From NCBI GenBank assembly GCA_965178125.1, contig OZ237775.1:372001-436000 (forward strand): a stretch of DNA of 64,000 bases. Direction: 5' to 3'. Position 1 is the stretch's first letter. Each line of letters starts with the position of its first letter. The notes under the pieces were generated by a model. It did no database searches, had not been told where the DNA came from, and saw nothing but the letters and a program-made list of their open reading frames with translations. Source of the DNA: Bilabrum cf. latius (lineage: Eukaryota). A program made the position numbers and the translations under genes. Below, piece by piece: positions 22,025-64,000 of the stretch.

Positions 22025-22066
22025 ACGGGCATACATTAAATATTATTATATCACTTTATAGAAATA

Positions 22067-22378: not shown

Positions 22379-22438
22379 TAAAGATGATATTAAGTCCCCA
22401 TAAAATTCTGATGCTTCTTGCTGTTAAAATGGTGTCAT

Positions 22439-22723: not shown

Positions 22724-22754
22724 AAGTACTTTATAGTATAGTCTTCTACTTATA

Positions 22755-34300: not shown

Positions 34301-37300
34301 CCTCGCCCAGAGGGTTGCAACCGCCATGGCGGAGGCTGCGGTGCAGGCCGGGCCGCTTTGCCCACCCCCTGCAGTGGAGGACGAAACTGACCCCGGCTGG
34401 GACAGGGAGATCGCCGGTCTCACCGCGACTGACACCACCGTGATCGGACCAGGCAGCGGAACATCATCGCGCGGCGCCACCGCAGTCCGTCCCCTTGCGG
34501 GGGTCGAGGTGGCGGAAGGAGACCCCCTGCCCTACCTCCTCGAGCCCTGGCGGTCCGCCTCTGTGGGCGCCCGCACATGCCTCCTGCTCCGATCTCTGGC
34601 GTCCACGCTCGGGGCCGGCCCATCGAGGCACGCGCTTCGGCGGGCTGTGGGGCAGGCGGCGGCGGCGGCGGCGGCGACCGGAGCCAGGCAGCGCCAGGCG
34701 GCTGCCATGGCAGAGCGCGAAGTAACCGCTCGGTGGCGGCTTCAGGTCGCAACTGACGGTGATGCGGTTGCAACCGGTGATTTGCAGTCGTCACACTCGG
34801 GAACGCTGGGCACGCCCAAGACCAAGCTGCCGCAAGCCTCTTCCTCACCATCGACATTGTCATCGTCATCCCACGCTCCTCCGGGCTAGAGCAACGGCGC
34901 CGGCACGGCTAGCTCCAAAGCAACAGGACTTGCAGACGGTGGGACGAGCCCGAGCAGGCAAACCAAGGCCCAAAGTTAGGCCAAAACCCAGGCCAATGGC
35001 TCCGCAGCCCCTGCACCCCTCGCGCCCCACAGAAGCAGATCAGCGCTGGTCGCCCGCAAGGCGCAGACCGCACTCGTCACACTGACCTCCAAGATTCTCG
35101 CCGCCATGGGTGGTCACTCGTCACACGCTGCGGGTGGATCCGCTGCGGACGCCATGTCCCCAAGGACCCCGGGGGGTACCACCCCAAAGGGGATGGCATC
35201 CCCGCGATCCCCGGGCTCCGGCGGGGGCAGTGTGGGTGGTAAGAGCCGGCCTGAGCACGCCCTTCGAAGACTTCCCGCCGTAGCCGCTGCAAGCCGGTTC
35301 GCAGGTGGATCCACTCCGCTGAGCGGTTTCGGCCTCCCGCCCCTGCTGGCCCTCTGCGGCCGGTCCATGGCGCTCCACGCCGAGAACGCGCACTCGATGG
35401 GTGCATCGCACGATGGTGATAGCACCAGAGGGGATCTGCCTGCCACCGCGCTGGCCCTGGCAGGCGGGATTTGGTGGTGCGGCGCCGGCACGCGCGATTT
35501 CGAGGGCCTGCTCCTTCGAGTGGCCAGCGCGACGCAGAGGCTGCCCGTGGCGCAGTGGGCGCAGGGTTCGCTGTACTCGGCGAACGTTCCTCAGGTGCAG
35601 CTCTCGTACCAGTTCTCCAAGCAGCGGAAGTGCCTCTACGTGGCGCTCACCCAGGAGGCCTCCGCTGGTTCCGCAAGCGCGGCGCCGCTGGCCACGCTGT
35701 GCGACTACGTGATGGGCGGGGCGGGCGGGGCTTCGGCTGCCGGGGTCGGGCTGTGCTCTGCCTCCGCTGCTGCGGCGACATACGCATCCGCGATCCGGCT
35801 GGGCCAGACCCTGGCCGCAGAGCATTCGTCACACGCCGCTAGATCCTCCTCCTCGTCGTCGTCCTCGCGCCGCGGCAGGGGATTCGGAGCCGGAAGCGAT
35901 GCCTCCCACGGTGAATTCGCCTCGCACCTGCTCAGGTGCATGTCCTCGGTGCGCGCCACGGGCGGTTCCGCAAGCGCGGCGTGGTCCGGTCCGCTCGTCA
36001 TCTTGGTACAAGAGAAGGACGGGCTCCAGTGGAAGCACACGCTGCGGGCGGGAAGCTACGCGGGGGCGGGCCTGCAAGCCGACGCGGACGGCGCAGAGGC
36101 CGCCGGCGCGGGGGCCGGAGGATCATCACTCTCCAACAGGAAGGGCCGGAAACCGACGAGACTGACACCGGGTGCCGCCGCCACGCTGGCAGCCCAGGAA
36201 GCGGCACGAAAAGCGGAAGCCAGCGGGATGCAGGCCGCCGGTGACATCGCGCTTGGCGGAGCCCCGGCAGCTCACGTCCCTGTGCTCCACCAGCGGTTCC
36301 TTGTGCCTGTGCACGCGGCGCCGGAGCGGGTCAAGTCCAGGAAAATCTCGTTCTAGAGGAAAAGGGAGCGGCCCAGCAACAAGCCGACGGCCAGGGTGCA
36401 TCGTATTGCGGAGCGCATCAACGACACCTCCGTCGCGACCATCTCCACGGACCCCTACCTGCAGCAGTGGATGTCGGTCACCGCACTCGTCACGCCACTG
36501 TTCGCCGCGCAGGCGCTTCAGGTGCAGGATGATGCCGCGGCGCAGCTGCGGGCCATCGAGCAGCTCGGCTCCATGGTAACCCGGTCCCTCAGCGACGCAG
36601 AGCAGCACAACACCCTGTCGGCGAGAGCGGACCGGCCCCCCTCGGAACCGCTTGGGACCGGCATGCAGCTCATGTGCCTGAGAGTGTTGGTCGATACCGG
36701 TTGCAACCGCCAGGGCCGGTTCCACCCCTTCGTGCGCGAGGCCGCGTGGGTGGCCGTGGCGGAGTGGCAGTCAAGGAGGGCGGGGCCACTCGCACCCCTG
36801 TGGGGCCTGGGGCCATCAGCGGCGAAAGAGTACCGCGTGGATCTGGACGCGGGTGGTGGTGGGGGCGCGAGTGCGGGAATGGGCGTCTAGGGGGGCGTTG
36901 GTGCGAGTTGGGGGCCGGCTGGTGGTGCTGGGGTTTTGGGTCTTGGATGGGGTGCACCGCACGGTGGTGAGGTGGACGCGCGCGATGCCTCCAGCGGCAC
37001 CGGCGCCGGCGCCGCGCAATCGCTGGGCACGCTTGCCTTGGTTCCGCTTCCCCGCGCGAGCCAGAACGCGTCCCCTCAGCGACTTCAGCTCGTCAAAGGG
37101 AGCGGCTGGGCGGGTCGGGGCGCGGGCGCGTGGGTGGCATTTGACTCGATGCAGTTCGAGATGGGCCGGTTCTGGTGGTGCCTCGAACGGGACCTGCCAC
37201 CACCTCCGGGTGTCAGGCGCTCCGGACACCTCGCCGAACGGTTAGCTCCGAAGGGCCTCCCCGCGGCGCGCTGGTTCACTGCAGACGACCTGCAGAACCA

Positions 37301-38745
37301 CGTGGATCTAGTCGATGCGGGCGAGGCACGAGACGCCGGCACGATCGGGTACGGCCTTCGGGGCGGGGAGGAGGAGGAGGAAAGGGGGGTACAGCGTCGG
37401 CGCTTGCAACCGGGTAGGTTCCGCACCGGGAAGGGCGCCGCGCAATCGTCGAAAGCGGCCTTGCTGCCGTGGGAGGCTGACACGGCAGGTGGCCGCGCGA
37501 GCAGGGCGGGGCTCGTCTCCGGGCTGGGCTGCCTCCGCGGTTCCGACGGAACTTCGGCGCCGCGCGCTGTGGAGCTGTTGCTTCGCTGCGGTGCCGCGCT
37601 CTCCATCCCGCTCTCGGAAGCGGAGCGGGCAGTCTCGCTGACCCAGTGCGAAGCGTCGTACGCCTGCGTTCTGATCCGATCCATGGCGTCGGCCGTCGCT
37701 GCGAGCCCGTGGGCGGGACAGGCCAGGAGGCGCGGTGACGGGGGCGGCGGTGCGGCAGCTTCGCCAACGTTCGATGGACTCGGAATCGAGTCCGCGTCGG
37801 CGGAGGCTGTCGCGGACGAGGCCGCCAAGCGACTGACTTCCCCTTCCCCTCTCCCTTCCTCCTCCGCTTCCTCCTCGACAGCAGGATCAGGATCAGCTTC
37901 AGGATCAGTGTCGTCTCTATCCGTGGGTCTGCTCGCGGGCGCTGGCGCCGATGCGACCGCGAAACAGATTCCTGACCCGCTGGGGCTCGCGCTCGCCCCA
38001 GGCTCCAAGTACGGCCCATCTGGCGCCGCGCTAGCGGAACCGGGGGCCAGGCACCCGGCCGCAGCTCGCGGTGCCGTGGTGGTTCGCGCCTCGCTGCCCT
38101 CGGCCGTCGACAGCAACGGCAGCCCGGCCGGTCCAGGCCCTGGCTTCGGCATCGATTCTGTGATGTCTGCTGCTGCTGCTGCCGCCTCGGGTGGGGCGGG
38201 TGGGGCGTTGCGACCAACAGGGGGGGCAGGTCCTCCTTCAAACGGTCGCACTGGCCCGGCCCGTCCCAAGTCAGTCAGGGTCGTAGCGGGTCCCATCGCA
38301 GGGTACGGCGCTGGCGCCGCGCATCGTGCCTACGGTATGTTCCGCACGTGGCTGTTTGCAGCAGTGCAGCGGCTTGACCTGGCGGCGCCGCGCACTGGTT
38401 CCGCAGCGCGGCTACTCCCGCGCGTGGTGTCACGGGAGGGGGCCGAGGCCGTCGGGGTCGAGTGCTGCCGCGCCCTTGCGGAACTAAGCCGGTGCGGAAT
38501 GCGCGGCGCCGCATCGCAGATGCGACAAGTGGCGGCTCAGCTCGGGCTTCCGCACGGGCTGCGTGTTGCGGCGTTGCGCGGCGCCGCCATTGCGGAACTC
38601 ATTGCGCGCCCGCCAAGGCAGTGGCCAGCGGGTTGGGCCCCGCGATCAGGATCGTCTTCATCTTCATCTTCGAAGCATGGTTCCAAACGCGCCGCGAAAG
38701 CATCCTCCGGGGCGGCTGCATCGGCTCTGGCTGCGGGAGCGGCGG

Positions 38746-38779
<34 letters not shown>

Positions 38780-39989
38780 CCATTCGCGAGCTGCTCGCCT
38801 GTTGCAAGGCAGGGACAAGCAAGAAGCCGGGCGGTACGCGCGCGCGTGGCACTAGTGGTGCGCCCGCGCTCGTCACATCCTGGCCCTGGCACAGTCAATG
38901 GATTCGGAATCAGATTTCCCGACCGGACTAGCGGGGGAGTCGCTGCTTCTGGCGACGCGCGGCGCCGCGGATGGCGGGACCTCGAGTGGAGCCAAGTTTG
39001 GGCAAAAGGCCTTGGCGGCCGCTGGCCAAGCACTGGGGGGTCACACGGCGTTCTTGCAGAGTGGTGGTCCTATCATAGCCCGGGACTCGGCCCAGGGTAT
39101 CCGGGCGGAGTTAGGTTCCGCAATGCGCGGCGTCTTCGCTCCGCTCGCCGACACGCAGGCGGTCGCGATCCTGCAGCAGATGCATCGCGGCGGACTCGCC
39201 GAGGCTGGTTCCGCAATGCTTGCGGGGCGCCGCGCGACGCTGCAGCTGTGGAGCATCGCTACGTGGCCCTGGAGCCCCGGTGCGCCTGACGGCCGCTCGC
39301 TGCCGGCCGGGTCGCTGGGCGGCGGTGGTCGCGGGGCGGCAGTGGCCCTGTGGCACGGAACGTTCGGCAGGGCCCCACCGCCGTTCGTCGAAGGACACGC
39401 CGCAGGCACCGCAGTGCAGTGCATGCAAGATGACATGAGCATGCTGCGGAACCGACAGTGGCGCCGCGCATTGCGGAACGTGCAGTCTGCGTGGCCGGGT
39501 CCGTCGGCTTCCGCCTCGGGAATCCGGAAGAAGGGCAGCTCAGCGGATGCCGACTCGGACTCCGATCTAGATGAGGCATCTGCAGGGTCAGATTCCGCAG
39601 ACGCGCGAGGTACCCACGCGGCGCCGGCGTGGGCCACCGCGTCCGCGGAGCTCCTGCGTCACGAGCGCGCGAGGTGGAGCAGGGCATGGTAGCAGACGGC
39701 CCGGAGAATGGACGTGGCTGCGGCCGCGGCCCGTGCAGGCAGCCAGGCGGGCGGACGAGCGGCTCTGGAGGAGTTGCGTGCACATACGAAGCGCGAGCAG
39801 GATATCGCGCGGGCCAAGGCGCAGGCCAAAGAGGCCAAGGAGACCGAGAGGGGGCGAAGCGGGGGGGGCCGTGGGCGTGGACGCGGGCGCGGGCGGGGCA
39901 GGGGCAGGGGGAGGGGAAGGGGCAGGCGCTCGTCATCCCTGGGTGCAGGGGGCGGTGGTGCACCGCCTCCGAAGCGGGCGAGAACGTAA
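31369..39989 (+). CDS. TAF2: TFIID subunit 2-like protein (M1 aminopeptidase fold), ~2800 aa with long low-complexity insertions; read with TAG=Gln
   Basis: Splicing intron 31658-31755 gives LLQEIELFIDLENRRIRGRTVLYV. Also RRWMPCVDLPNARYMF, LAYHLCWQW, LVQEKDG, QDDAAAQLRAIEQL, FHPFVREAA. Seven same-frame fragments joined by TAG; RG-repeat tail; ends TAA. Confidence 0.7.
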
Positions 39990-43235: not shown

Positions 43236-46200
43236 ATGAAACTGGACATTGCTGCAGTTGGGATCGCTCTGATTGCCGTCAATGGGCTGACGGTTGCTGA
43301 AGAGTTGTGTGCCGCAGCCTCTATTTCTCTCCAAAAAGGTATATCAGCCGGAGACAACCTAGTGTGCGCATTGAATGCTGATCGTGGAAGTCGTATATAC
43401 TGCTTTGGGTCGTCCGGCGAGGTTTCAGTGGAGCCTTGGCATACGGAGCCAGCGCTTGCAGTAACAGTATAGAAGGGTGCTTCCCCTGATCAGCGAGGCA
43501 AGGTATTCGCAATCGAAAGCGCATCCAAGCAAGTGATTAATCTAAATGAACCATTTCCTGGGCAAGTCGCCCCGGCGGGATAGTACCAGTATCTGTCGGT
43601 GGGCGAGGCCCACGGCTGCTTGATTGGCATGCACGACGGCAAGGCAAAGTGCTTCGGCTCTTCGGCGAATTCGAGGCTAGACGTACCCACCAACATATCA
43701 GGAGGCATGTGGCGGTCTGTATCTGCGGGGATGGATGACAGCTGCGGGATCGACTCTGCTGGGCAACTGCACTGTTGGGGGACGGCCAGTTCGGAACTCG
43801 TGGCTGCCGCGCCCGACGTGCCGGGGGAATGGCGCCACGTGGATCTGGCGGATACTCACGCGTGCGGATTATGGAGCCATCCCGAAGATGCCCCGCCGGG
43901 GGGAGGGGGGGAGGTCGGCCTGCGAATGGCATGCTGGCACGGCTCAGTGTCGGTTGGCGGGCACGCGAACGTGCCGGAAAGCTCACACAACTGGACAGAC
44001 GTGTCCACGAGGTACTCTAGGACCTGTGCCATCGAGGCGGTCACCGGCATTCTGCGATGTTTCGGAAGCCCTCCCCTTCAGGGAATGTCCTCTATGGAAG
44101 GCGTCCGATGGACGGTGGGCAGCAGCATGAATTTTGGGTGGTGCGGGGTTGAAGCCAACTCCAGCATGGTGCGATGCGTTGGCACGTACGGAGACGGATC
44201 GACGCCTTTGATCGCCCCTGCGGGCCTGAGAGCCATCGCGCAACCCTTGCTATGCCGACCAGCTGTGGTGAGTCAGCTGGCGTCAGCAGGCGCGAATCCG
44301 AACGTGACTCACCTCGACCTTACCAACTCCACTGGGCTGGTTGCGTGGCCAGCAGCACAGGGCGGAATCCTGAAGGGATGGACGGGACTGCGCTGGATCT
44401 CACTGCCTGGATCTCTGGAGTCCTTACCGGCTGGACTGCTGCGAGGCATTCCTTCGATCGGAGCCGTGGATCTGTCGGCTTGTTCCCTGGTTGGATCTCT
44501 GCCGCCCCACTCGTTAGGCACGGACAACGGCACGCTAACGGTGGCAAAGCTGCCAGAGGGGTTGCACACAATCGAGGCAGGCGCGTTTCTGTCAGAAGAC
44601 GGCCCGCCCAATTCGAGACTAGATGCGCTCACGATCCCGTCCTCTTTGACCACCCTGGAGCCGGGGGCGCTGGTCGGCGCTGGCCACATGACCTCGCTTG
44701 ATCTTTCAGGGGCCAGCATCCAGGTGCTCCAGAAGGGCGCACTCGCTGGGCAAGACAACATCAGCGAGATCCTGCTGCCTCCCACACTGACCACCATGGA
44801 GCCGGGGGTGTTTCTGAACCTGTCCAATGTCGAGACGCTGGATCTGTCTGCCACAAACGTCACAACACTGCAGTCCGGCGCGCTGGCTGGGCTGTCGAGC
44901 TTGCGCCAGGTACTGCTTCCTGCTGTGCTCGAGGACCTGGAGGGCCATGCCCTTCCCGCTGAATCATCGCTTTCATTTGACACCAGCAGTCTCGATCTGA
45001 GGCCCACCAGGCTGCGGGTCCTCAGGGCCAATGCTCTGGTAGGGGTCACCCAACGGTACAATGCGTTCTTGCCGCCGACACTGCAAGACATTGAAGCCGA
45101 TGCGTTCAACGGCACCATCATAGGAAGTTCGCCGATCCAGATTCTTCGTATTTTCGACCAGAATGTATCGGTGCTTCGGACGGGGGCCTTGCGTGGGCTG
45201 CCTGCCCTCACCGGATTCGGAGCCGGTTCAAGGGCGCCGCCTAGCCTCGCCAGGATTTAGTCGGGGGCCTTCCACAACCCCACCCCAGGCGTCCTTGAGC
45301 TTGAAATGCAGGACTGCCCCATGGAGAGGCTCGAAACGGGGGCGTTTGCTGGACTGACGGGGCTGTTAGGCGGCCGGCTTGAGCTCCCCAGGGCTCTTCG
45401 GGCGATCGAGCCCGGTGCGTTCGTCCACTCACCTCAGCTGACCCAGCTCGACTTCCGCGGCACACAGGTAGGCGTGTTTCCGACTGGGATGATGCGGGGC
45501 TTGGGGGGTGTGACTCGGCTGTTGGCGTCGCCGCACCTTCAGAGGATCGAGCCGTGGGCTCTTCTGAACGGCACCTCGCTGGAAGAGATCGACCTTCGTG
45601 GAAGCGGCCTCGCAGTGCTGGAGACTGGCAGCCTTGTGGGGCCAGTCGACCTGACCGAGCTGCATTTTCCCGCCAATCTTACCGCCGTTCGTGCCGGTGC
45701 CCTGCCAGTCGCACCCAACCTCGAAACGCTCGATCTCGGTGTGACGAGTGTACAGGTGCTCGAGTCAGGGTCGCTGTCCTAGTTGACAGGCGTGTGCGGG
45801 TCTGGCACCAGCTCGAGCTGCTTCACGCTGCCACCCACCCTTCGTGAGATTCAGAGAACGTCCATGCCAATCGTGACTTCGTCTGTACCAGCAAGTCTTG
45901 ATGTATCCCACACTCGGCTTGAAGACTTGCCTGAGGGCGCATTCGACGGATTGGCTAGAATATCGAGCTTGATGCTCCCATCAACTGTGCGTCGCATTCG
46001 AGGAGGTGCATTCAGAGGCCTGAATAGCTTGACATACCTTGACATTGGGAGCACCGGGGCCACCAGGCTAGAATCGAGGTCACTCCATGGCCTCTCAAAA
46101 ATGACCAGGATTGATCTACCTGATACGCTGGTTGTCATCGAGGAGAACGCGTTTGACCCGTTGACATCGCTGGAATCGCTTGATCTCAGCAGCACTGCCA

Positions 46201-49200
46201 TCGAGGTGTTGGGTGCTGGCGCGTTTAGTGGTCTTAATGGGGAATTTTTGACGTCTGTGCTGCTGCCATTTGGGTTAACGGAGGTGCAAGGGGGTGCTTT
46301 CAGGAATTCTACTGGCCTTTCCGACCTCGAGTTTTAGGACACGCAGTTGCACACCCTCAGAACCGGGGCATTCGATGGGCTCACATCGTGGACGGATGAC
46401 AACCTCGAGCTGCCACCCACGGTGACAGTGATCGAGGGTGACTCGTTAGGGACAGCAGACATTGGTGCCATCACCTTTGAGAACACCCAGGTGACAGAGC
46501 TACTCCCGCGTGTCTTTGCCGGGCCCAAGCTGCCAGAAAATATCAATCTACCCTCTGCATTGCACCGTATTCACCCTGGTGCCATGGATGGAATCAGGGG
46601 TAGACTAAACCTTGAGCTGTCAGATACGCAGGTGACAGTGCTTGAGACGGGGTCACTGTCCGGTCTTCACTCAGCAGGACAGTTGGACTTTCCGAGGGCT
46701 CTATCGGGTATAGAGCCACATAGCCTGCCGGAATCAGATGAAATCACGGTAATTGACCTGTCGGACACGCAAGTGCGGCGGCTAGTGAACGGGTCGCTTT
46801 CTGGTGCCCGCAGAGTGCACGACAACCGGCTGTCCCTGCCGCAGGTGCTCGAGACGATTGAGCCTGGCGCCTTCAGTGAAATGTCACTCGTCAAATCCCT
46901 GGACTTGAGAAACACGCTCGTCACGTCGCTTGCCGAGGACGCTCTCCACGGCTTGACAGGCTTGAGGCAGCTCTTCCTGCCAGCTGGGTTCAGTCGGCTG
47001 CGCTCTGGTGCCCTCAGGTCATGCAGGTCTTTGGCGTCTCTGGACCTGAGCGGGACTAGTGTGACTCGACTGGTGTCTGGCGCACTGGAGGGCATGAGCA
47101 GCATGATGTCTGTATCATTGCCAAGGAACCTGACCGTGATTGAAGGAGGGGCGTTCCAAGGGGCGTCCGCATTGAACTCGGTTGATCTGCGGGGCACTGC
47201 GGTGACCGAGCTGCCGAGCCTATCGCTAGCAGGGGCGCGCAACTCGACCTCAATTGCGCTGTCGAGTATCATTGAAGTCATCCACCCGGGTGCATTCAAC
47301 GACAGTGGAAGGACCGATGCTTTGGATCTGTCAAGCACTCAGATCGTGAACTTTTAGGTTGGTGCGCTAATGGGCCTGACAGGGTTCAGCCAGCTGTTGC
47401 TGCCGCATGCCGTGACGAAGCTGCACGCCGGATTTCTGGAGGGATCGAAACCCGCTGCCTCGCTTACAATCTCTGCACCCGGTGTGACGAGCGCTGACGC
47501 CGGGGCGTTCCGCGGCGTGGCGTCTCGGCTGTAGGAGCTGACACTCGTTGCCCCGCTGCTCGGCACGGTGCCCGACCAGCTGTTTGCTGACCTTCCATCT
47601 CTTGAATCGCTTACAATCAGCGCTGGGGAGTCATTCCAGGCTACGGTGTCAAGCCTACCGTGCCGGCTCTTTGTTGGCTTGCCGGGCCTGCGATAGCTCG
47701 TTGTAAATGCGACAGGTTCGCAGAACGTGTTCGGACAGGAGCTGGATCTTGCCACCGGGGGATTTCGCGGGTGTTCGTTTGCTGATTCGATTCGAACGAT
47801 GCACCTGCACGGGCTGGACCTGCGCTCTTCGGAGTGGACCGCGAATACGTTTGCTGGACTTGCTGGGATTGAGGTGTTGTAGGTCACGGGCTGCTCAGGA
47901 CAACGATCGTTTAGCATCGCTGGCGATTTTCTGACGCCGCTGATTGATCTTCACACCTTAGACCTGGCTGGAAACGGCGTTGAAACGCTGCCGCAGCTCA
48001 CCAAGTCCCCAGCGGGCGTGCTGCGGTCCATCGACCTCCGATCCAACCCTCTGGACGTGGTTGTCGCCACCCCCTTTGAGAACCTGTTCCGACTGGAAAC
48101 CGTACACGTTGACCTGCAGAAGACGTGCGACCCAGGCACGGTCAAACAGCCTGTGACGGTGCTCAACGGCGAGGACGCTGCAGTTTGCGTGATGTGTCCG
48201 GCAGGGCACTACTGCCCCGACGGCCTAGCCCTCATCGAGTGTGCCGAGGGCTCTTTCAATCCAGCGGCCATGTCAAGCCTACCAGAGGCCTGCATCATTT
48301 GCCCGCAGGGCACAACGACGACCTTTCCGGCCGCTTAGCGAGAAACTCAGTGTGTGTCAGTGCCCCTCACGTGTGCGCCAGGCACTGCCGGGTTTGACTG
48401 CGACGCTTGCGGGCCTGGCACGTTTTCTGTGGGGGGCAACGTATAGGAATGCGGCGTCTGTCTGCCTGGCACGGTTTCTCGAAAAGCAAGGCTCTCTCTC
48501 GGGTGTGACGAGTGCCCTACGGGCAGCTACATGCCTCTCGCGAGGCAAGCCGGGCTGGACAGCTGCCTCCTGTGCGGCGAGGGGCTGGTTTCCGATTCCG
48601 GGTCGTCTTCGTGCTCCGGGTGCACTGGTGGCTCGGTGCTGGACACATCCTCGGGTACCTGCATCAATGCGCAGGACGGAGAATGCGACGGTATGACGAG
48701 TGCGTGCCTTCCGGGGCTGCCCGAACCCGTGGCCGCTCCCGTGCAGATCTCTCGCGTGATGGCGTCTTTGCCGCTGCCTCTCGGCGGGATCGGCGGAGCT
48801 ACGAGCCCGGATGATGGCCAACAGCAAGCGGCCCTCAGCTCCATCGATCTTTCCTCCGCAAGCTCTGCGTCAGGTGTGACGAGTGAAACGGGGGGTGGCT
48901 AGTCCCAGGAGTAGACGAGCGGCATGGCGCGCCGGCTGGGCACCCACGGCACTGACCGCGAGTTTGCAAAGGTGCTTCGGACTGCGGGCAGTTTACACGG
49001 TGCTCCCACGATCCCTGTGCAGCAGTCCAGGGATCGTTTCCTGCAGGCTTCGTCAAATGAAGGCGACAGCGAGGGTGAGGGCACGAGTGCCAAAGTGCGG
49101 CAGTCAGCTGACTACACGAGCAACGTGAACATCGTCGGTGCAGAGAACATCGTGTGGGCGGTCAGCAGCAGCCTGATCGCCAGCGTTGCCATGATGCTCC

Positions 49201-50771
49201 TTGTTCCCCCGGCCAGGCCCCCCATGCAGTGCTGTCTGCAGAAGATAGACGCCATGTCTTCCGATCACCAGCCGGAGTAGTTCTCTGCGGTGCGGAGGAT
49301 CAGCACGCCTCTTGGCGGGTGGTGCACTGTGGCGGCCATTCTCGTGGCGCTGGGTGCCTCTTCCAGCCTCATACTAGAGTGGGCCTATCTGAATGCGTCA
49401 AGCACGGACGGGCTCCAGGTGGCGGCCACTGGCGTGCCTGGCGCCGACAGGGCAGCTGCAGCGACTGCCGACATCCTGCTTGACGTAGTGTTTCAGCCAG
49501 CCTCGTTTATACCTTGCAGTGACTCAGCGGTGCTACACGTAGCATCAAGTAGTGACTTAGCATCGTCGGAAGATCTGCCGGGATCGAGCAGGATGGAGCA
49601 AGCGGCGGCGTCAAGCACGATGGTGCAGATGGCTGCGACTGTGGGCATCCAGGACCTGCGTGTCACAAAGGGTAATGCCACAGAGGATCAGCACCGCCTC
49701 TGTTGGCTCCGTGCTTCGTGTGATGACTGTGGGCTTCCAGCGGTGGTGGAGCTGTCTGTCAAGTCGCACTGGTCGGTGCAGGTGATGGGATGGAGGCTGG
49801 CGACCACCGATGCCGAGGATGGATGGGCCTTTGCCAATGGCACCGCGCTGTCACCGGCCGCGGATGCAAGTACGTAGAACGAGACGGAACTGAACGGGCT
49901 GATGCTTGATACCCGCAGCGAGACCATAGCATTCGTGGGTCACATACTTGATGACGACAGGGGTGGGGAGCTGCGACAGACAAACGGATATCGAGTGCAA
50001 GACATGCGGTCTGGGGCCAGCACCACCCGCCCAGTAGGCGCAATCGATCCCGTAGATTCGTCGACCACGCTGCAGCTGCAGATTGGGAGGTCGGCGGTAT
50101 TTGCCTCCACCAAGATTTCCACTGTGTACTCGTTCGGCCAGGTGGTTTCCTCTGTGGTGGGTCTCACGGTGGGCATCCTGGGTGGGTTCAAAGCGGCGTT
50201 TGCGGCGTTCGAACGCGTGTTTGGATCGCAGCTGGTGTGGTTGTGCGGCATGAATGGCCGCGTGGTCACGGAGGAGGAGGCGATGGCTCGCAAGTCAGAG
50301 CTTGATCTTCTGGAGAGGGCTGGGCAGGGCCACGGGGGCGGTTGCTGCAATGCGGCAGGTGGCAGCATGGGTGGTAATGGTGGTAATGGTGGTGCTGGTG
50401 GTGGGCGCCAGGGTGGGGCCATACAGACGGGGAAACTGAGGAAAAGCAATGCATAGGCACGTAACCCGCTCCACCCTTAGCGGGATAGATCGCGGGAATT
50501 CAGCGCCTCTGCGCGATTCGAGGGAAAGCGGTCGCAGCAAAGCCTATCTGTCGTGTCACCTCTCTTGTATGCTACTGCAGGTGGCAGGACCCAGCCAGAG
50601 CGGTCTGCATTGGATAGTGTCACTGCAGATCGAGCAACGATGGTTGAGAATGCGCGCCGCCTCCGGTTGAGCTCGCAGAGGGGAGGGGGCGGGCCCATGG
50701 TGGCCAATCCTCTGCCTGGGCAGGCCGGAGGGAAATCGGCGCAGGGCTCGACGGCGGCTGTAGCCACGTGA
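43236..50771 (+). CDS. ~2510-aa membrane protein: signal peptide, RCC1/BLIP-II-like repeats, long BspA-type LRR array, GCC2/GCC3-like Cys-rich repeats, ~3 TM segments; read with TAG=Gln
   Basis: Eleven same-frame fragments from ATG 43236 to TGA 50771 are separated by TAG. Motifs include VSAGMDDSCGIDSAGQLHCWG, LPxxLxxIExGAF..LxxLDLSxTxV and CPAGHYC..CAEGSF. Hydrophobic stretches near 49150, 49330 and 50150. Confidence 0.8.
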
Positions 50772-53582: not shown

Positions 53583-56500
53583 TTACCGATACGAAGTGTA
53601 TGTACCCAGGGTCTCAGGTTGATTTGAGTCTACCTCTCCTGGCTGGGCTACCCTTGGCTGGTTCGTTTTACCAAGGGGAGCGTAAGGCTCGAAATCTCTG
53701 CGATTGCGACTACCAGTTGCACCCCGGTTCTTCATAGCCATCGGATTGAATACGCGAAGCATGGCAGGCATTCCAATGCTAGCCCGCCAGCTTGCAAGTT
53801 CTTTCACGTGAGCCAGATCATCGGTGCGAACTCGGATTGGGAGCAAGTCAGTGCCCAATTCTGCAGGCGGCTCGAACAGAACCCCCCCGACTCCCAGCAA
53901 GTCGCGCTCATGCTAGGCATCAGCATGGATATCGTGCTGAATTTGCTGCGTAGAAATAGGCTGGGCTAGAGCTTGAGTAGATCTATGTTGGTCGTCGGCA
54001 GAACCAGCACCGCCTACTGCTTCACGTCGTATGCCGCCAGACTTAGGCTGTTGGTATTGGCGCACCGTCGGAATGGACCTGCTGCCTGTCTCCAAGTCCT
54101 CAAAGGTCACTGTGGACCCCTCTAACAGCCCAACCCTGCTTGCAATCACTGCCTCCGGCTGGCCTAGGCATTTAGGGATCGGCAGCTCGTTCGGCTGCAT
54201 CCCAAGCTGCCTGGCAATGTCAGCCATCGTGCCACCTCGAATTGGAACTCGGATCTTCCTAGACTTCGAAAGGGATGCACTTGTAGCTTGTGTATCAGAC
54301 GGGCTCGAATCGGGCTGCAGCACCTGCACATGCATCTCCATCACGCCTGCAGCGGCTCGCGCCAAGATTCGATGCAATGGTAGGTGACCACTCACAATCG
54401 CCGAAATTAGCGCGTCCTACAGCTTCGGGTCATCCTCGTTCCCGCCTGGCATAATGCACAGTTGCACGCGGATTGGAGGCAGCTCGTGCTTCCTGTACTT
54501 GCACTCGGCGAAGAAATCACCCACGGCACTGGTGATGATCCTTGCCCCCTCAGTGATGCCCAGCCCGTGCATGCCCGACCAGATGGGGATACGGAGCACC
54601 ATCGGTACCTAGTGGTCACGTGGTGTTATATCCGCAGGTCTTCTCAGCGGCACAGGCTCCTCCTCGCTGGACGGGTCTTCCTCTGTGTCTACCACAATTG
54701 AGCGCAATCTACCGGTTGACAAGAACCGATCGAGGTCAGAATACGGATTCGTACCATCATCACCTCGTCTAGTAAGTGAGCTGGACTGCCTTGACTCCTC
54801 AGATCTTCCATGTGTTCCTGCAGCACATGCTGTTTGGCAAGCGGTTTGGCTTTGACCACTCGCTTGTTGTGCTCCGTCGATCGATGCAGCGGCGCCCCCC
54901 CCCGGAAAACGTATATCGCGGTGCAGTCCGTCTAGCTCAGTCATGGGCTCTGCATGTACCCGCTTACTGTGTTCTTGCTATCGCCGCCGCGGCGACTTTT
55001 TGCCAACTGAGTGAAGCAACCGCGCACCGCACGGATCGGCGTCATACCACCTTGCTGTTCCATCGTTGATGGTATCATATCTACGTTGAGCTGCGCAGGC
55101 CTGAGCCATTGCAGCGCTCTCATCTTCATTGACCTCATCGTCGATGCGATAACCTCTTGCCCTGCACTCGTCAAGTACAGCCTTAACCAGGAAATGCCTT
55201 GTTCCCTCGAACAGTCCGATCTTTCGACTAGCTAAGCATGCCATGTTCTATCGGGCCTCGTGTATCTCGCTGTCTGTAGTTCGAGCGTCGCTAAGGTATG
55301 TCCCTCTCAGGCCATCTTGCATTTCGTACACTTCTTCGTTATTCTGCACCGCGGGGCGCAACGTCTCGACGCAGTATATCGCACACGTTCCCGAATCTCG
55401 TTCGGGTGCGACTGGCTGCCCACTTCGCTCTCGTGCCGTGCTTGCACCACTTGCAGGCGCCTGCTAGTGGTGCTCATTGCATGGGTTACTCAAGACTTTG
55501 CGAAGGCAATGGGCCCTGCGGAACGACCGGGGAGCTTCACCGCGGAGATCTCCAATGCTGGCGCCTAATCCATTCTTCTCAAGCTTTGTTACATACATGT
55601 CATTCTCTCGCTTGATCAGCGTGTCTTGCCACTCCTCAGGGAATCCTTCGATTGTGATTGGCAAGCAACCGGCTTCATGAGTACGCAAACGCTTGATGAC
55701 CCAGCCTTCAAGACAAAGAAACGGATGGCTGTCAATGAGGTCTTCCTGTTCGTCTGGTTGCGAACTATTGCGGCGTGCGAGGCCAGGAATTGAAGCAGTT
55801 GTAACCTGACTTGTGGTTTGGCCGGTACGCAAATCGGTACCTCTCGCCTAAGGCGCTGATGGCTGGCGCACCCTCGACACTACGCTTGGCATCACGGCAA
55901 CTGCTACGCTAGCACCTCCTTGATAACCCTGTGTGAGTTCTTTCCAGCTCATCTTGCAGCAGAGCAGCTCTGCCCTCCCGGCCCCTCCATCCGATGCACC
56001 GGCAGTGCTGCCACAGACTGTGTCTGCAACACCAGGCCCGGTAGCTGCATCAGGTACTTGACAATTCCCGTGCGAGGGACAGTCGACATTGAGTGCGCCA
56101 AAGTCGTGCTGGGAAGCATCGGCGGGGACGCTCCAGCCCTACGATGCTAGTCTACGCACGAAATCTGTCATCTTGTCGTATGCGTCTGGCCAATTGAACA
56201 CGATGGTGTGGGTTCCACGGTGCGAGAGATGCTCCTTGCACTTGGTCTTGAACTCCAAGAGATCTTGTTCGTACTTCTTCACCATTTCTATGCGCTTCGA
56301 ATCCGAAAGCTTGAGATACTCCGTCTTGTCAAACTGTGGCGCTACTGTAAGGAAAAAGTGGGGACCCACGTCGCCCACCACCTCGATCGCTTGATCTAGG
56401 CCAGCTAACACGTCTCTATCCTCCAGCCCAAATCCATAGAACATCAGGCTGTAGTCGGAGGCGATCATTCGAAGCATCTGCATTGTCATCGTGTCTGCAT

Positions 56501-59500
56501 GCACCAGTCTCCTGAAATCCTCATGGCTCGACACAAACTCGCCCATGCCACCAGGGCTAATATCGCCGTGCAGCTTAACGAGAGCAGGCACGTCGGATTG
56601 TGATTGCAAGTGGGCTCGCAGTCGCTTGATATCCTTGCGGAAGATTTTAAGAAGGGAAAACTGCCTTTGTACCATGTACTCACCTTTATGTCTGACGGGG
56701 AGGTGGTTCATCCGCTTTAAGGCCTGATAAGCATCTCTCGGCCGCTGCACATGATCGTTTTGGGATTCTCCTCCGGGTGCTCCGTGTTGTCTTGCTGCAT
56801 GCAAAGCAGCCATTACCTTCCAAGTCTCCTCAAAAAGAAGGTCCCAGTTGGTCGTAACGATGGCCGGGAAGGGGCCGGAAAGGAGGGCTGCGTGACGATC
56901 GAGGCTTCCTTTGATGGCAAGCTTCTGGATAACATCTACATCAACATCTACATCTACAGCCGCACCTGCGCCTATGCGAGCATTAGTGCCAGCAGTACCA
57001 GCTGCACCTGCGCCAGAACCAGCGCCAGAACCAGAACCAGCGCCAGAACCAGAACCAGCGCCAGAACCAGCGCCAGAACCAGCACCTGTGCCAGCATTAG
57101 CGCCAGCACTAGTACCAGCACCAGCGCCAGCGCCAGCACTTTCAGGAAAAAGCGTACCCCTCTTGCCATCCTCAATGACACCTTTCACGCATTTTTTAAA
57201 CTCTTTGGCGCCGAACTTCCCAATGAGTTGCAATGTAAATGCATCCAGCTTCACGCCAGAACGATTGATACTGTCATTGAAGCGCTCATATCCGGCTTCC
57301 GTTGGAACATCGTCGTGGACATCAGGAGGGTTCAATGCGTTCCTCAACCTGAGATACACGCAATAGAGCAAAGTTTTCCAAGTGGGAACAAGGCCGTTGC
57401 TCACCCCTGCCCCGGCAAAGGGAATCACCTTCCGGCACCGCGTTCGCTCCAGCAGCAGCCTCACCGACCCCTTGGGGTACTCCATGAACACTAGATTCTT
57501 GTCGTCTTCCAGCGGTGGATTGAGAAGATCCTTGAGAGGAGCTGCAGCTGGTGCAGGGTCTGGGGTTAGACCTGGACCTGGGGCTTGAGCTTGAGCTGGA
57601 GCTGGAGCTGGAGCTTGAGCTGGAGCTGGAGCTGGAGCTGGAGCTGGAGCTGGAGCTGGAGCTGGAGCTGGAGCTGGAGCTGGAGCTGGAGCTGGAGCTG
57701 GAGCTGGAGCTGGAGCTGGAGCTGGAGCTGGAGCTGGAGCTGGAGCTGGAGCTGGAGCTGGAGCTGGAGCTGGAGCTGGAGCTGGAGCTGGAGCTGGAGC
57801 TGGAGCTGGAGCTGGAGCTGGAGCTGGAGCTGGAGCTGGAGCTGGAGCTGGAGCTGGAGCTGGAGGAGCTGGAGGAGCTGGAGCTGGAGGAGCTGGAGCT
57901 GGAGCTGGAGCTGGAGCTGGAGCTGGAGCTGGAGCTGGAGCTGGAGTTGGAGCTGGAGCTGGACCAAGGCCACTGGGAGCTGCATCGCCTGATCCTGCAC
58001 TAGCAAGGCGCCACCAGTGAAGGTCAATTCGACCGGGAGCTGCGAGCGGAACGAGAGCCCCGCGAGATTCCAGCTACGGGCTGGATGCGGTGCTGCCTAC
58101 CTAATCACGATCGATGCCCATCGTAACGAGTTTCTCTCTTGCACAGGCTACCATTTCGTCTGCTTGGTCAGACTAAGCATCTTGCAATCTGGCCACACAC
58201 CACGCCAAATCTCCGACGTAATCTGCTCGTGGTCTGCAACTTGACATGCATGCCCGTACCAAAGGCTCTGAGATCGAAGGGAGGCCTATCTCGCTTGGCC
58301 AAGACCAAGCAAGTCTCCTGTCTATCCAATCGCCCCAACTCTGTATGCAAGGCTCACCCACACGTGATTCACGAGCTGATCTTGACGAGGCACCCTCGCC
58401 ACCGTCTGCAGCAGTCCTTGATACTTCTGCTACTTCTCGCAGCTCAGGTGGCTCAACTGGCTGCCTGGTGAGAATCGTGAACATGATGCAGCCGAGGGCA
58501 TACACATCGCTAGCTTCCGTACGGCGTGCCTTGGGCTCGTTTAAAAACCTCTCTGGTGGCGCGTGCGGCTCAAACCACACATCCGGCGGAGGATCGCTGA
58601 ACCGTCGAGACAGGCCCAAATCAACGAGGGTGGCCCAAAATCGTGTAGACCGTGCTGGATCTGCCCTACTGCTACTAGCAAGTGGGGCGTGATGCACTCC
58701 GAATCGAGACTAGTGCGTCATCCGATGCCGCAGCATAGCCTCCTCGTCGGCATTGGCCTCCCTGAGTACGATGTTGCCGCAGTGGATGTCGCCGTGTGCC
58801 AGTCCTAGCGCGTGCATGGCAGAAACAGCGTCGGCTATCTGGGCACAGATGCAGAAACGCTGCCCCATGCTCAGATCAACTCCGATACCGTCATAAGGGG
58901 CCGGCCACTAGGCCATCGATGTTCTGCCTGCCTCGTGCAGCAGTAATCTCCGGGTGGAGCTGGCGTCGGACAGTGGCGGTGAAGTCATAGCTGCAGCTGA
59001 TGACTTGGGCATGGCCTTCGTGTTAGACTCAACTATTGCTGCACTTTGTACCACATGACCCAAGCCGCTGTAATAGGAAGCTCCCCAAAGCGTTGCTGTG
59101 TGGCACTGAGAACCTCTCGCAGCTAACCGTGCGGCTTCCGTGAGCATGCTGGCTGCAATAAGCTCATACGAAACTCGATCAGAACTCCTAGATTTTTTGG
59201 CAGGGGTATAGCCCGAGCCCTTGCCTTCCCGACCAGCAGAAATGCTGGTGAGTTTAGCATCGCGTTCGCTTTCGATGGATTTCATTTTGATCGTTTTCAG
59301 CAGAAACGCCGAGTGCTCTGTTCCTCGCAGGATAGATTGCGACAGCACTCTAGCCCATTGCTGTACTCGTATCTCCCGCAGCTCCCCAAAATTCCCCTGG
59401 CCCGAAATCGTATTTGTTCGGATCACTGCAGCTTCGGGTATGATTGGAAGCACGCGTACGACGAGCGAATCATCTTTATTTCCGGCAGCCGCAGAAGTTG

Positions 59501-62161
59501 GCCCTGCATTTGCCGTATCACGAGCTGGCACATCCCGTGGCGAAAGCAACATGACGTTGGTTTTCAACGATGGTGGGGCCATGCATATCGGCAGGCGGCC
59601 GGCCGCGACTGATGACTCTGCACGCGCGCACAAAGAAGCACCAGCTTCACAAAGCTACCGAGCACACGCTGATGGCTGGCTATCGACAGCACCGGATGGC
59701 GCAGGCATGTACACAGAGGCATCACCAGTGCCGAAGCCAAGAGAGAGACCATTCCCTAGCCAGTTGATCCACGCCGACTCGTCTAGTTGCTGGCACAGAG
59801 CAGGCCAGGCACTGCGCGAAAGCAAATCTCCACTTCCCCACGTCTCCATGTTCAGCAGCAGCATTGCCCGGGCCCTGGGTTGAACAAGTGGCACGATCGG
59901 GGGCAGGAAGCACGCCGTGTGCTCCGAAAGGGTGGACAGGTCGAGGTGCTGCCTCGCCGCGGCACACGCGTCCTCCCACTCGCGCACCTTGCGCCAAGCC
60001 TGTGCGCGGGCATCATCAGCAGCAGGCGTGATGGGCAATCCCAGCAGGCTCTAGCGCCAGGACACGTCCTTGCGAGACCTGAACATGTCACACAAGCTGC
60101 TGGTACCAGCATTCGATCCGGCCATAGTTTCACAATACCGCTGCTTTGCGAAATCTTCATCATAACACGTGACCTTGGTCTGACGGATGCACCTTATTTG
60201 CAGCTGAGGATCTCGAGACAGCCTCTTCTCCTCATCTTCGTGCATGCACACGAGCACGGTGGGGTCCGTCTCCGACGCTGATATCCGCAGGGCAAAGCAT
60301 ACTGACAGTTTCTCTGTGCTCATTATGTGCTGCTTCTCACTAGTTGCGTTCGCCTCCCGCAGGCGCATGTATGCCTCATCACCTCGACTGCGGCTAGACA
60401 CGAGAGACTCACCGAAAGCGCCTGGTAGGGGACAGGGCAGCTGCGATGCCCACATCAACTAGGATATACGGCCGCTTGAATCGGAATACTACAGGCAACT
60501 GATGACGCCCGCAATCCGTTCTTTGTCTGACTGCAGCAGCATCATTGGGGATACCTCGTCATCTGGTACTCCATGTTGAACCCCCTACCCGCCACCCGCA
60601 GAACTCCCGGCGTGTTCACCGGTCGTCGCGAGCGTCAAACCTCCTTCTACGAGGTCTGTTCCGAGGCCAGCGGCACCTGCATGTGATGCATCCGTGCCTG
60701 CATGCGATGCACCTCCATGAGACCCGTTAAGTCTCAGGGACATTTGCCCATACTCATTCACGTGCACGTCCAACCGGTAGTGATGTACGGTGAGGTGCTG
60801 CTGGCGCCCGACTGCAGAGGAGCCACCGCTCGGTCCAGAACTAGGCGCGGGAGCGTGATCCATGTCAGTGCTCCATGTGAATAGAGCTCTTTCTTTAACG
60901 ATATGGCCCTGCAGCGCCGCAAACGTGACACCGTCTCTACTCGGCTGCAATACTGATGGCGCAGTGTACCCGGCAGCATGCTCGGCAGCTGCTGCGTCCA
61001 AGCCTGGCGTGTCCAAAAAGCCAGCCCCCCGCCCTGCACCGGGTACACCTGCAGTCTTGGCGCCAGAGTCTGTTGCGCCTACTTTTGCAGCTTCATCTCC
61101 AGCACCATCTACTTGGCCCCCGGCTGTGTCTCTGGTTCGACTGCCAGCTAGGCCAGAGCTGAGCTCGGGTGCCTGAAGCTCCCTCAGGTGCTTATGTACA
61201 GCGGGACACACGATCTGAAACGGTGTGATGAAAGATCTTCCGATGTCATCATCACCTGCCGTTCCAACCGCATAGAGGGCCGGAGATTCTTCGGGATGCT
61301 GGGCTGCAGAAGATCCTGTCATTGCACCACCTTGCGCTGCACCCTGGCTTGAAGAAGCACCGTGAGCCGTGGGCGCCGAGATGCGCAGATGTGACGTGGT
61401 CTGGCCCCGAATCATGCCGCTGCTGCCATCTAGCCCAAGCCCTATGACGAGTGCAGCGGCAGCCAGAGCACAGGGGTACTCCCCGCTGACCGTCTTCATG
61501 CCATTGCCCCCGCCCCGCCCCGCCGACAGGATCAAACCCTCTCCGTACTCGCTCGGATTCAACCGCACCAGCCAAGGGTCCTGTCTCTCGATCGACGACA
61601 GCAGCAGGTCGGCGGCCGGGCGAGACATCATCCCCTGCATGCCGGGCAAGGCAGCGTCCAGGGCCAGCAGCCGGTGGGATGCCGCGAGGATCACACGATC
61701 AGGTGTTCTAGCTTGATTGCCATCCGGCATGATGCCAGCTCGCAGGATGTGGAGAAGGCCGGCAAAATCCAGGAAAGGCACCAGAAGGCTCTTGTCTTCT
61801 TTCTCTTGGAGCCTGGGAGGCGTGTCGAGCTGCCCGAGAGCTGCGCGCCAGGCTTCAATGCATCGATTAACTGCATTACCACCAATCTGATCGACCGAGT
61901 ATTTCTTGCTGTTATCGCTTCCGGATGTGAGAGTCTCGCGGATGCGGCGTTCGATCGTTTGCCAAGGCAGCGCCGGGAGCAAGTCTTTGGTTTCCTGCCT
62001 GCACCAACAAGAGTAGGGCAAAAGTAGAATCGCCTACAAATGTAATACAAGATGCATGCCAATGTGACAGCGGTCAGCTCTATCGGCATGCAATGACATG
62101 ACATGCCACACGTACGATCTTACCGTAGGAATGATGCCCAAACCGCTGTAGAAGCTATCAT
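53583..62161 (-). CDS. ~2800-aa multidomain protein: N-terminal region, Ser/Thr protein kinase, (Ala-Pro)n linker, SIR2-like (SIR2_2) domain, possible Macro-like C-terminal region; read with TAG=Gln
   Basis: Twelve same-frame fragments joined by TAG; ends TAA at 53583. Predicted exon 1 at 62124-62161, intron 61999-62123. Kinase motifs GQGNFG, LLKTIK, HGDIHCGNIVL, DLGLSR, HAPPE, SDVYALG. SIR2 motifs IPFAGAGVS..PTWKTLL, IVTTNWDLLFE, LVKLHGDI, LMFYGFGLEDRDV. Confidence 0.8.
57583..57963. repeat. Hexanucleotide microsatellite (GCTGGA)n, ~60 units, encoding an (Ala-Pro)n linker on the minus strand
   Basis: Directly visible. In the frame of the kinase-SIR2 gene it reads GCT CCA repeats with no stop. 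Confidence 0.95.
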
Positions 62162-62628: not shown

Positions 62629-64000
62629 TCAGTCCCGTCCGTATTGATCCTCTGGGGCTGCGGAATACACCATGTCGTGCGCACGTTGACCGATCAAACT
62701 GCGCCACTTCTCCAGCAGAGACTACAATCGCTGTGCATCTGTTTCTGGAGCAGCGCCCTATGAACTTGCAGCTGACGACTGCCGGCCAAGTGGTGCTCCC
62801 GGTTTGCCTCCGTCCGAGTCGCTGGACTCCTGGGGTGCCTTCCGAGGCGTGTCACCGTCGTCATTGGATTTGCCACCACCTAGTCCCTTGCCCGATTCTG
62901 CCCCTGACCCCTCGCTCGTAGTTGCAACAGTTTCTGCCTTACCAGCCGATGATTCTTTGCCGCCTTCAGCACCGGTGCTAGCTGTTCTGAAGCGCACCGG
63001 AAGCAAGTCAGTGCCGTACTCCGCTGGAGGCTGGAACAAGATGCCACCGCCTTTCCAGGCTTCCCTGCCCTGCAATCCCTCGCTTTCCTCTTCCACCTTT
63101 CTGAGTCCCTCCAGATCGATGAAAGAGACCGCAGAGCCTTCCAAAATCCCAACACGGCTGGCAATCACGTCAGCTGGCTTATCCATGAAACTAGGAAGGG
63201 GCAATTCACACGGAAGGAGACCCAGCTGCTGAGCCACGTCGGCCAAAGTGCCGCCTCTGATGGGGATGCACATCCTCCTCGACTTGACCACACGTGCCAT
63301 GTGATGAGTGCCAGAGCGCACTGCAGGGTTGGTCCGTCTGCTGCTGCCAGGGTTGGCGGCGCTGGGTTGCCGACCCGTCTCCTGTATTGGAGGGGGCATG
63401 CTTTTGGATTCTGCTCCAATCGACCCTGCGGCAGCACCCGAACCCGCTGCGGTTGCCTTCGCAGGATCATTTGGTTCTCTGGCTGCTGTAGCATCACCAA
63501 TCCGAGAGTCAGTGGCGTCTCCAGGAAAGCCCCCACTCGTTTGTGCGAGATGACCTGCGTCAAGCACCTGCACATGCACTTCCATCATGCCATCGACGGC
63601 TCTGGCCAGTACAGACTATAAACAAAGCTGCCCACCAGCGATTGCAGTCGTTAGGGCATCCTGGAGTTGAACACATGTACCGTCCAATTGCCTGTCCTCG
63701 CATGGCATGATGCACAGCTGCACACGAATCGGAGGCAGCTCGTGCTTCCTGTACTTGCACTCGGCGAAGAAATCACCCACAGCACTGGTGATGATCCTTG
63801 CCCCCTCAGTGATACCCAGCCCGTGCATGCCCGACCAGATGGGGATGCGGAGAACAATTTCCCGGTCGCCACTGCAAGTGGCTTGCAGAGAGTGAATGCG
63901 GCCAAGTTCACCTTCCTGTGTCTCGCAAGCGTTGCTGCTCGTGACTGTTGAAGACTCAGAAGCGATCGCCGCAGGTTCGCTCGGCTCGCTTGGTGTAAAC
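62629..64000 (-). CDS. 3' part of a tandem paralogue of the 53583..62161 gene (5' part outside the window)
   Basis: Shares GMHGLGITEGARIITSAVGDFFAECKYRKHELPPIRVQLCIMP, IPIRGGTLADVAQQLG, VIASRVGILEGS and GGILFQPPAE.GTDLLP. TAG-joined fragments; ends TGA at 62629. Confidence 0.75.

Follow-up and report, generated by a model that had tools for sequence, protein, structure and literature searches.

Does the nuclear genome of the protist Bilabrum cf. latius encode a single giant protein that joins a protein kinase to a SIR2 domain resembling those of bacterial antiphage systems and, if so, what might such a protein do? The question is raised by the minus strand of a 64,000-nucleotide stretch of contig OZ237775.1 (assembly GCA_965178125.1, positions 372,001 to 436,000), which we call the window and within which positions are counted from its first letter. 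A preliminary description, made from the letters alone, had proposed a fusion of a kinase, an Ala-Pro spacer, (AP)n, and a SIR2 domain, and had imagined it as an immune or cell-death effector that depletes NAD+ under the control of phosphorylation. We think it probable that the locus is a single genuine gene, from a protist with few introns, a high GC content and TAG decoded as glutamine, that its product of about 2800 residues has the order kinase, (AP)n, SIR2, Macro-like domain and ubiquitin-like (Ubl) domain, and that it acts by the NAD+-cleaving mechanism proposed below.

When TAG is translated as a residue, the locus is one open frame of 2852 codons closed by TAA, which contains 19 in-frame TAG codons and is free of TAA and TGA up to that stop. 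The five alternative frames of the same DNA carry 40-105 TAA or TGA codons apiece, and about 65 would be expected (log10 P ~ -28.6). The fusion is thus detectable only when TAG is sense, as had been claimed, and domain and repeat scans find Pkinase (sub-threshold), (AP)n and SIR2_2 in one frame. The upper boundary of 62161 given in the preliminary description has to be abandoned, as it lies 20 bases beyond the frame and out of phase with it, and translation from there is stop-rich.

The 13 long open reading frames (ORFs) of the window have between one and 19 in-frame TAG codons each and end in TGA (eight), in TAA (four) or off the window edge (one); these frames were delimited with TAG as a residue, so their TAA and TGA ends cannot test for TAG stops. 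Among these ORFs are ordinary eukaryotic genes, namely those for Ssl1/TFIIH p44, a WD40 protein, gamma-glutamyltranspeptidase, and ankyrin and BspA-type leucine-rich repeat (LRR) proteins. Given TAG-bearing ORFs that end in TAA or TGA together with such genes, we therefore take the window to be nuclear protist DNA in which TAG is sense and TAA and TGA are stops. As to the amino acid, the neighbouring paralogue has CAG where the fusion gene has TAG2575, TAG2001 aligns with Gln in a fragment of a relative (P0041), and TAG84 of the window's gamma-glutamyltranspeptidase aligns with Gln in two of the three PDB alignments listed and with Leu in the remaining one. Decoding of TAG as Gln is the best reading of these alignments. 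A code in which UAG is Gln and UAA is retained as a stop is reported for the fornicate Iotanema spirale (PMC5304391).

A codon-usage score favours the ORF frame in most of the segments scored over residues ~100-1240, 1550-1990 and 2480-2700. Furthermore, diverged copies of N-terminal segments on extra contigs present 29 variant sites, 19 of them at codon position 3, seven at position 1 and three at position 2, an excess at third positions that fits purifying selection on the 2852-codon frame together with a multi-copy family. The four runs compared were represented by contigs of essentially one strain, and the compared stretch omitted the (AP)n repeat. Over 58750-62030, the extra contigs have roughly equal depth and match short segments only (e.g. 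59836-59985 and 61779-61932), with 8-12 differences, before they diverge; they would represent the N-terminal region in partial paralogues or in divergent alleles.

By profile and predicted fold, the SIR2 domain is of the defence type (SIR2_2, or 'SIRim') and not a canonical sirtuin. Pfam SIR2_2 (PF13289) scores 52.7 bits over residues 1760-1952, against a curated cut-off of 24.5, while the canonical sirtuin model PF02146 has no match at E<=0.1. The motifs GAGVS (1577), TTNWD (1763, with Asn1765), KLHGD (1856, with His1858) and GFGLED (1903) are all present, and the Asn and His columns are nearly invariant in a 29-sequence alignment. A profile of the homologous family pairs TTNWD and KLHGD with TTNYD and KMHGD of ThsA, in which N112 and H152 are reported to be required for NAD+ hydrolase (NADase) activity (10.1101/2024.09.18.613514). 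Residues 1553-1990 hold four Cys and no CxxC, and hence no Cys4 zinc module; according to the same preprint, SIRim proteins lack the Zn-binding Cys tetrad. A structural model of residues 1528-2014 has a predicted local distance difference test (pLDDT) score of 72.7 and a predicted template modelling (pTM) score of 0.72, and Foldseek finds 58 matches to it at E<=1e-3, those listed being ThsA (5e-6), FAM118B, SPARSA, DSR2, KomC/KomBC and SIR2-HerA. There are no canonical sirtuins among the Foldseek matches listed, nor among 40 matches of the family profile to PDB sequences. On this profile and fold evidence the domain does not side with housekeeping sirtuins, and its preliminary placement in the SIR2_2 defence type, without Cys4, is borne out by a PF13289 score above cut-off and by profile and fold matches to ThsA, DSR2, KomC and FAM118B. 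The residues equivalent to the catalytic ones appear intact, and NAD+ hydrolase activity is predicted.

Searches for homologues place this domain in a larger unit. Using phmmer with the SIR2 part against 1.84 billion representatives, we obtained 126 matches at E<=1e-3, of which 30 reach <=1e-10, and Gly/Ala low complexity accounts for many of the weaker matches; a near-length search with the same part yielded only two matches, swamped by Gly/Ala words, and a search with the full-length protein in a 5.8-billion-protein collection returned only low-complexity (AP) matches. In an iterated profile, 19 of the better homologues share a further module of ~190 residues with the C-terminus of the query, and a profile of 11 compact proteins (~520-600 residues) matches the query at E 1.1e-53, with four collinear pieces at residues 1559-1593, 1747-1780, 1826-1936 and 2539-2651. 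To judge from profiles and models, the conserved unit is SIR2_2 followed by a Macro-like domain and a beta-grasp tail, and, since the C-terminal Macro-like and Ubl parts are shared, the SIR2 part of the query belongs to a SIR2–Macro–Ubl family. Bacterial members of ~520-600 residues (P0018, P0024 and others) are collinear with the query, but are compact and have neither kinase nor inserts. The kinase-(AP)n-SIR2 architecture originally described is therefore right in the parts it named, while the C-terminal Macro-like and ubiquitin-like module had been missed.

The evidence for the Macro-like domain comes largely from the family. Among the 40 matches of the family profile to PDB sequences at E<=1 are 22 SIR2 proteins (KomBC/KomC, ThsA, 7uxt, DSR2, FAM118B, 9nah, SIR2-HerA, SIR2-APAZ and 9jap), which are of defence type or non-canonical; the other 18 of the 40 fall on the C-terminal module and comprise 14 Macro domains, three designed hydrolases and SAMP2. 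The Macro matches include TTHA0132 (3e-5), the PARP14 macro domain (3.8e-4) and macroH2A1.1 (2.7e-3) over ~140 positions, with PARP9, YmdB-type and viral macro domains among the others; the designed hydrolases align on the same stretch as TTHA0132, and the SAMP2 match has an E of 0.69. Pfam Macro is weak, recognising two of the 11 compact members (best 0.0061). Compared by hhalign with 30 bacterial Macro domains, the family aligns at E 0.0016, its 'PLLAxGGGxLP' standing opposite the Macro loop 'FPaIstGvyGyP', and in the query IPIWSGMHGLG is the counterpart of the family loop hLPLLAxGGGxL. Further upstream in the query, the motif TRHFLVKAVLDEC is likely to be a remnant of the N-terminal half of the Macro domain, followed by an insert of ~190 residues.

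An AlphaFold model of residues 2500-2852 contains 104 residues with pLDDT>=90. Its residues 100-188 (query residues ~2599-2687) match Ubl domains in VIA-align, with 35 chains at Z>=5 and 56-83 residues aligned; Ubl domains make up almost all of the 50 best rows, at Z 4.8-6.4. Foldseek with this C-terminal model gives weak Ubl rows and no match at E<=1e-3. We regard it as more likely that the Macro–Ubl module, rather than the kinase, is the regulatory input of the protein.

The kinase itself is divergent. It was found, as the preliminary description had it (~58100-59420), with the expected motifs: the G-loop GQGNFG (914), LLK (947-949), HGDIHCGN (1116), DLG (1174) and PPE (1195), so that G-loop, beta3 Lys, catalytic Asp and Asn, DFG Asp and APE Glu are all located, the beta3 Lys having been assigned by eye. 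Large inserts interrupt the domain, and ~45 residues separate the catalytic loop from DLG. PADLOC kinase models score to 2.8e-12 (mad6), and the 58 PDB sequences that match the region at E<=10 include nothing but protein kinases, with CDK12 as the best match (0.0056); their alignments cover the catalytic loop and the APE–alphaF segment. Gly replaces the Arg of HRD, making the kinase non-RD. Non-RD kinases are linked to innate immune receptors. Between kinase and SIR2 domain, the Ala-Pro spacer first put at ~60 units measures 65.8 copies in an array of 392 bases, the unbroken run of Ala and Pro covering residues 1400-1507. The region N-terminal to the kinase has no Pfam domain at E<=0.1, the query has no transmembrane (TM)-like segment (no Kyte-Doolittle window >1.8), and its N-terminus and kinase show no similarity to three metagenome contigs that carry homologues (L111, L112 and L113), nor to other ORFs of the window.

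How far is this protein already known? Eukaryotic SIR2(SIRim)–Macro proteins have been described in a preprint, where 'clade C', from 83 species, is reported to be typically SIRim–Macro and to branch with ThsA-like proteins (10.1101/2024.09.18.613514), and the novelty assumed in the preliminary description is lower to that extent. In architecture the query resembles clade C, with a defence-type SIR2 domain that lacks the Zn Cys tetrad and, C-terminal to it, a domain that is Macro-like; it differs in ~1540 additional N-terminal residues with kinase and (AP)n, in the splitting of its Macro-like domain by an insert and in a ubiquitin-like tail. The words 'kinase' and 'ubiquitin' are absent from the main text of that preprint. 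One narrow literature search, by title and abstract, found no eukaryotic kinase–SIR2 fusion, which does not show that the fusion is unpublished. The core is already known; its fusion to a kinase and (AP)n is new, as are the ubiquitin-like tail, the splitting of the Macro domain and the occurrence in a TAG-recoded organism.

Of the characterised systems, Thoeris ThsA (SIR2–SLOG; PDB 6lhx, 8bto, 8wc0) gives the best fold match to the query (8btp, E 5e-6) and is among the best profile matches (~3e-14), and the motifs GAG, TTN(W/Y)D and K(L/M)HGD are common to both. In each, an N-terminal SIR2 effector precedes a C-terminal nucleotide-binding sensor, which in the query is predicted to be Macro-like. 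Unlike ThsA of type I, the query is a giant eukaryotic fusion whose sensor is Macro-like and not SLOG, and no ThsB-like TIR domain was found among the 13 window ORFs scanned. ThsA of Thoeris type II (TM–Macro) also carries a Macro domain, reported to sense ligands of the ADP-ribose (ADPR) type, with ligand-induced oligomerisation (PMC11204291), but its effector is a membrane domain whereas that of the query is SIR2. Human FAM118B (PDB 9r0p, 9r3e) has the same SIR2_2-type fold (fold E 2.2e-5, profile 1.1e-5) but, unlike the query, is a single-domain vertebrate protein without Macro, Ubl or kinase.

In the mechanism we propose, the SIR2 domain would cleave NAD+ by means of Asn1765 and His1858 when the protein oligomerises, as may be expected by analogy with the filaments of ThsA and FAM118B (PDB titles; PMC12700824). 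The Macro-like domain would bind ADP-ribose or a derivative of it, as a trigger or as feedback, by analogy with the Macro sensor of Thoeris type II (PMC11204291). More speculatively, the kinase might be a second input or a second output. The cell could use the protein for signalling in conflict or under stress, or for cell death. An immune or antiviral function is possible, and so, more speculatively, is gating by phosphorylation.

Genes around the bacterial relatives offer some context. The one close relative in a set of one genome per prokaryote species is in a metagenome-assembled genome (MAG) of a Myxococcota (76% to P0018), where an RNase_T–WYL gene and glycosyltransferases, one matching 'GT4-conflict', lie upstream. 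The P0024 gene (metagenome contig L111, region 2202-4907) directly follows a NUDIX gene and has nearby a trypsin-like protease, MrcB_N, a DEAD/Lhr helicase, BrxC/D and PglZ, that is, a BREX neighbourhood. The best PADLOC model is ThsA for both P0024 (5.9e-15) and P0018 (4.7e-11). Being two contexts and no survey, these are suggestive of a bacterial defence role for SIR2–Macro–Ubl genes. P0024 and its NUDIX neighbour may be an undescribed two-gene defence pair with an NAD/ADPR theme.

Several observations weigh against reading the locus as one kinase-bearing NADase, and they are best considered with the alternatives that they favour. The kinase–SIR2 junction is the weakest point of the case for a fusion. 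The codon-usage signal is poor across residues 1250-1540, which span it, a second frame is likewise free of TAA and TGA over residues 1236-1399, and three TAG codons (1323, 1347 and 1356) cluster right after the kinase. Pfam Pkinase reaches 24.9 bits (E 1.5e-5) on the C-lobe only, under its curated cut-off of 31.7, and His stands in place of the catalytic-loop Lys of Ser/Thr kinases. Among 55 homologues scanned, SIR2_2 is found in 52, a histidine kinase in one and a Ser/Thr kinase in none. Moreover, a collinear homologue of at least 1911 residues, with 14 in-frame TAG codons, at 5950-11682 of a metagenome contig (L112, 1-11682, 55% GC) starts at an ATG directly before its SIR2 domain, has in-frame TGA codons upstream and lacks a kinase; the gene that precedes it (2029-5553, nine TAG codons) is unrelated and DNAAF5-like. 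As neither this homologue nor any of the 55 has such a kinase, the conserved unit works without one. On these comparisons the kinase is not ancestral and would have been fused later to a SIR2–Macro–Ubl unit in the query lineage. Finally, none of the eight runs that contain the sequence is recorded as RNA, and the fusion is known from DNA alone. An alternative is that the kinase half and the SIR2–Macro half are separate products, whether translation of the latter starts at Met1553 on a transcript from an internal promoter, splicing parts the two, or TAG causes termination in some contexts; the long frame would then exaggerate the fusion. In favour of this, besides the L112 homologue and the poor coding signal and TAG cluster of the junction, another relative (P0014) likewise begins at the SIR2 domain, and Met1553 lies 8-9 residues past the point where homologues start. 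However, no TAA or TGA interrupts the kinase frame before 53583, so that ribosomes starting upstream must read through, and TAG is clearly sense at conserved sites. In a closer relative (P0012), similarity continues upstream of Met1553 (PLEDDKxLV), with Asp at the position of that Met, and the open frame of P0012 continues upstream, ahead of the SIR2 domain, as low-complexity sequence for at least 85 further residues. We consider two products quite improbable. A still less credible explanation is that the gene is an artefact or in decay, either because of an assembly join within the 392-base repeat or as a pseudogene with a frame open by chance. A join in a perfect hexamer repeat could not be spanned by short reads, the read comparison left out the repeat, and the codon-usage signal is weak over long stretches (residues 2000-2470). 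Yet 2852 codons without TAA or TGA (P ~1e-28), a frame kept on either side of the repeat, intact catalytic motifs and the long low-complexity stretch that P0012, too, has ahead of its SIR2 domain all speak for a genuine gene, as do six runs from three studies that contain at least 74% of sampled words, some of them possibly the source sample itself. An artefact is thus very improbable.

Other points concern the C-terminal module and the function, and here again they weigh on the opposing side. The Macro domain of the query is detectable only as a C-terminal half plus an N-half motif of 13-15 residues, a bacterial Macro N-half profile has no match in residues 1960-2620, the hhalign probability is only 15.9%, and no Ubl match reaches Z 8. 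With regard to function, FAM118B is reported to be a weak NADase in Toll-like receptor (TLR) signalling that neither kills cells nor depletes NAD+ (10.1101/2024.09.18.613514), and NAD+ depletion or death is therefore no safe default. The protein might then be a real fusion that serves as a signalling or housekeeping enzyme, with weak NAD+ processing, ADP-ribosyl transfer or ADPR signalling coupled to phosphorylation, in the manner of FAM118B. That FAM118B is among the best fold and profile matches agrees with this, as does the window, in which no viral or defence neighbours of the gene were found; genes for a gamma-glutamyltranspeptidase, an LRR protein and a WD40 protein of dynein type lie around it. 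Against it, the closest bacterial relatives are ThsA-like and found in conflict contexts, and a tandem paralogue with partial extra copies suggests a diversifying family; we find such a signalling or housekeeping role unlikely. We hold only tentatively a more elaborate view at the other extreme, a doubtful one, in which the protein would be a kinase-coupled, Thoeris-like single chain: an NAD+-depleting SIR2 domain would be under the joint control of an ADPR-type signal, read by the Macro domain, and of the kinase, through phosphorylation, the Ubl tail would link it to ubiquitin-type signalling, and the gene would derive from bacterial SIR2–Macro–Ubl defence genes and be expanding as tandem paralogues. 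Our preferred reading remains one gene for a kinase–(AP)n–SIR2–Macro-like–Ubl protein.

If both parts do reside on one protein, a eukaryote would have phospho-signalling tied to the arm of bacterial-type immunity that works through NAD+ and ADP-ribose, and the gene would provide a concrete construct for testing how SIR2–Macro proteins switch on. For the conserved core, a tractable model is offered by the compact SIR2–Macro–Ubl relatives that bacteria carry next to BREX and NUDIX genes. Gene callers that use the standard code fragment such genes (relatives were recovered as pieces of 94-316 residues), and the family is therefore under-counted in recoded protists. The homologue on contig L112 requires TAG as sense, a sign that public metagenomes contain a second eukaryote with recoded TAG. 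On another contig (L113, 2889-3740, 40% GC), the SIR2 matches of a homologue change frame over a gap of 54 bases; the gap looks like an intron, and this would be a eukaryotic copy in a metagenome.

Table 1. Features of the fusion gene and its tandem paralogue (positions in the window; residue numbers count codons of the open frame).
Feature	Position	Strand	Basis or remark
Whole open frame	53583..62141	-	2852 codons + TAA; earliest ATG codons at residues 15 and 29
N-terminal region, residues ~15-904	59430..62099	-	coding by codon usage from ~residue 100 and by third-position variation between copies
Divergent eukaryotic-type protein kinase, residues ~905-1322	58176..59429	-	Pfam, PADLOC, PDB sequence matches, motifs
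Unique linker, residues 1323-1399	57945..58175	-	TAG codons 1323, 1347, 1356; weak coding signal
(GCTCCA)n tandem repeat read as (AP)n	57572..57963	-	period 6, 65.8 units, 94% matches
SIR2_2 (defence-type, 'SIRim') domain, residues ~1545-1990	56172..57509	-	Pfam, profile, fold, motifs
Gly/Ala/Ser-rich repeat inside SIR2 domain, residues ~1668-1712	57006..57139	-	repeat scan; pLDDT <50
Poorly conserved middle region, residues 1991-2513	54603..56171	-	contains conserved motif TRHFLVKAVLDEC
Motif TRHFLVKAVLDEC	55164-55202	-	common to L112; weakly to P0036, P0037
Macro-like domain, C-terminal half, residues 2514-2610	54312..54602	-	profiles, model, hhalign
Ubiquitin-like (beta-grasp) domain, residues ~2622-2687	54081..54278	-	model pLDDT >90; VIA-align
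Tail motif LFEPPAELGTDLLPIRVRT	53823..53879	-	common to neighbouring paralogue
Tandem paralogue, cut by window end	62629..63999	-	upstream; final 456 residues repeat Macro-half + Ubl module

The tandem paralogue has 74% identity to the query over 101 residues and 40% over 152 residues. Elsewhere in the window, 20001-24000 stands out by its GC content (34-42% vs 56-70% in the remaining window) and is poor in long ORFs whichever code is used; a spacer, a repeat or a mobile-element remnant might account for it. The ORF at 31680-39989 (plus strand) has 2769 codons, ~70% GC and nine in-frame TAG codons, is very rich in Ala, Gly and Ser, ends in an RG repeat, and has no Pfam domain. On the minus strand, a frame of 2025 codons at 2-6076, open at the window edge, has 19 TAG codons and no Pfam match. 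The plus-strand gene at 43236-50771 encodes a BspA-type LRR protein of 2511 codons, 17 of them TAG, with an Ephrin_rec_like Cys-rich module; such an architecture of BspA-type LRR and Cys-rich parts is typical of surface proteins of anaerobic protists.

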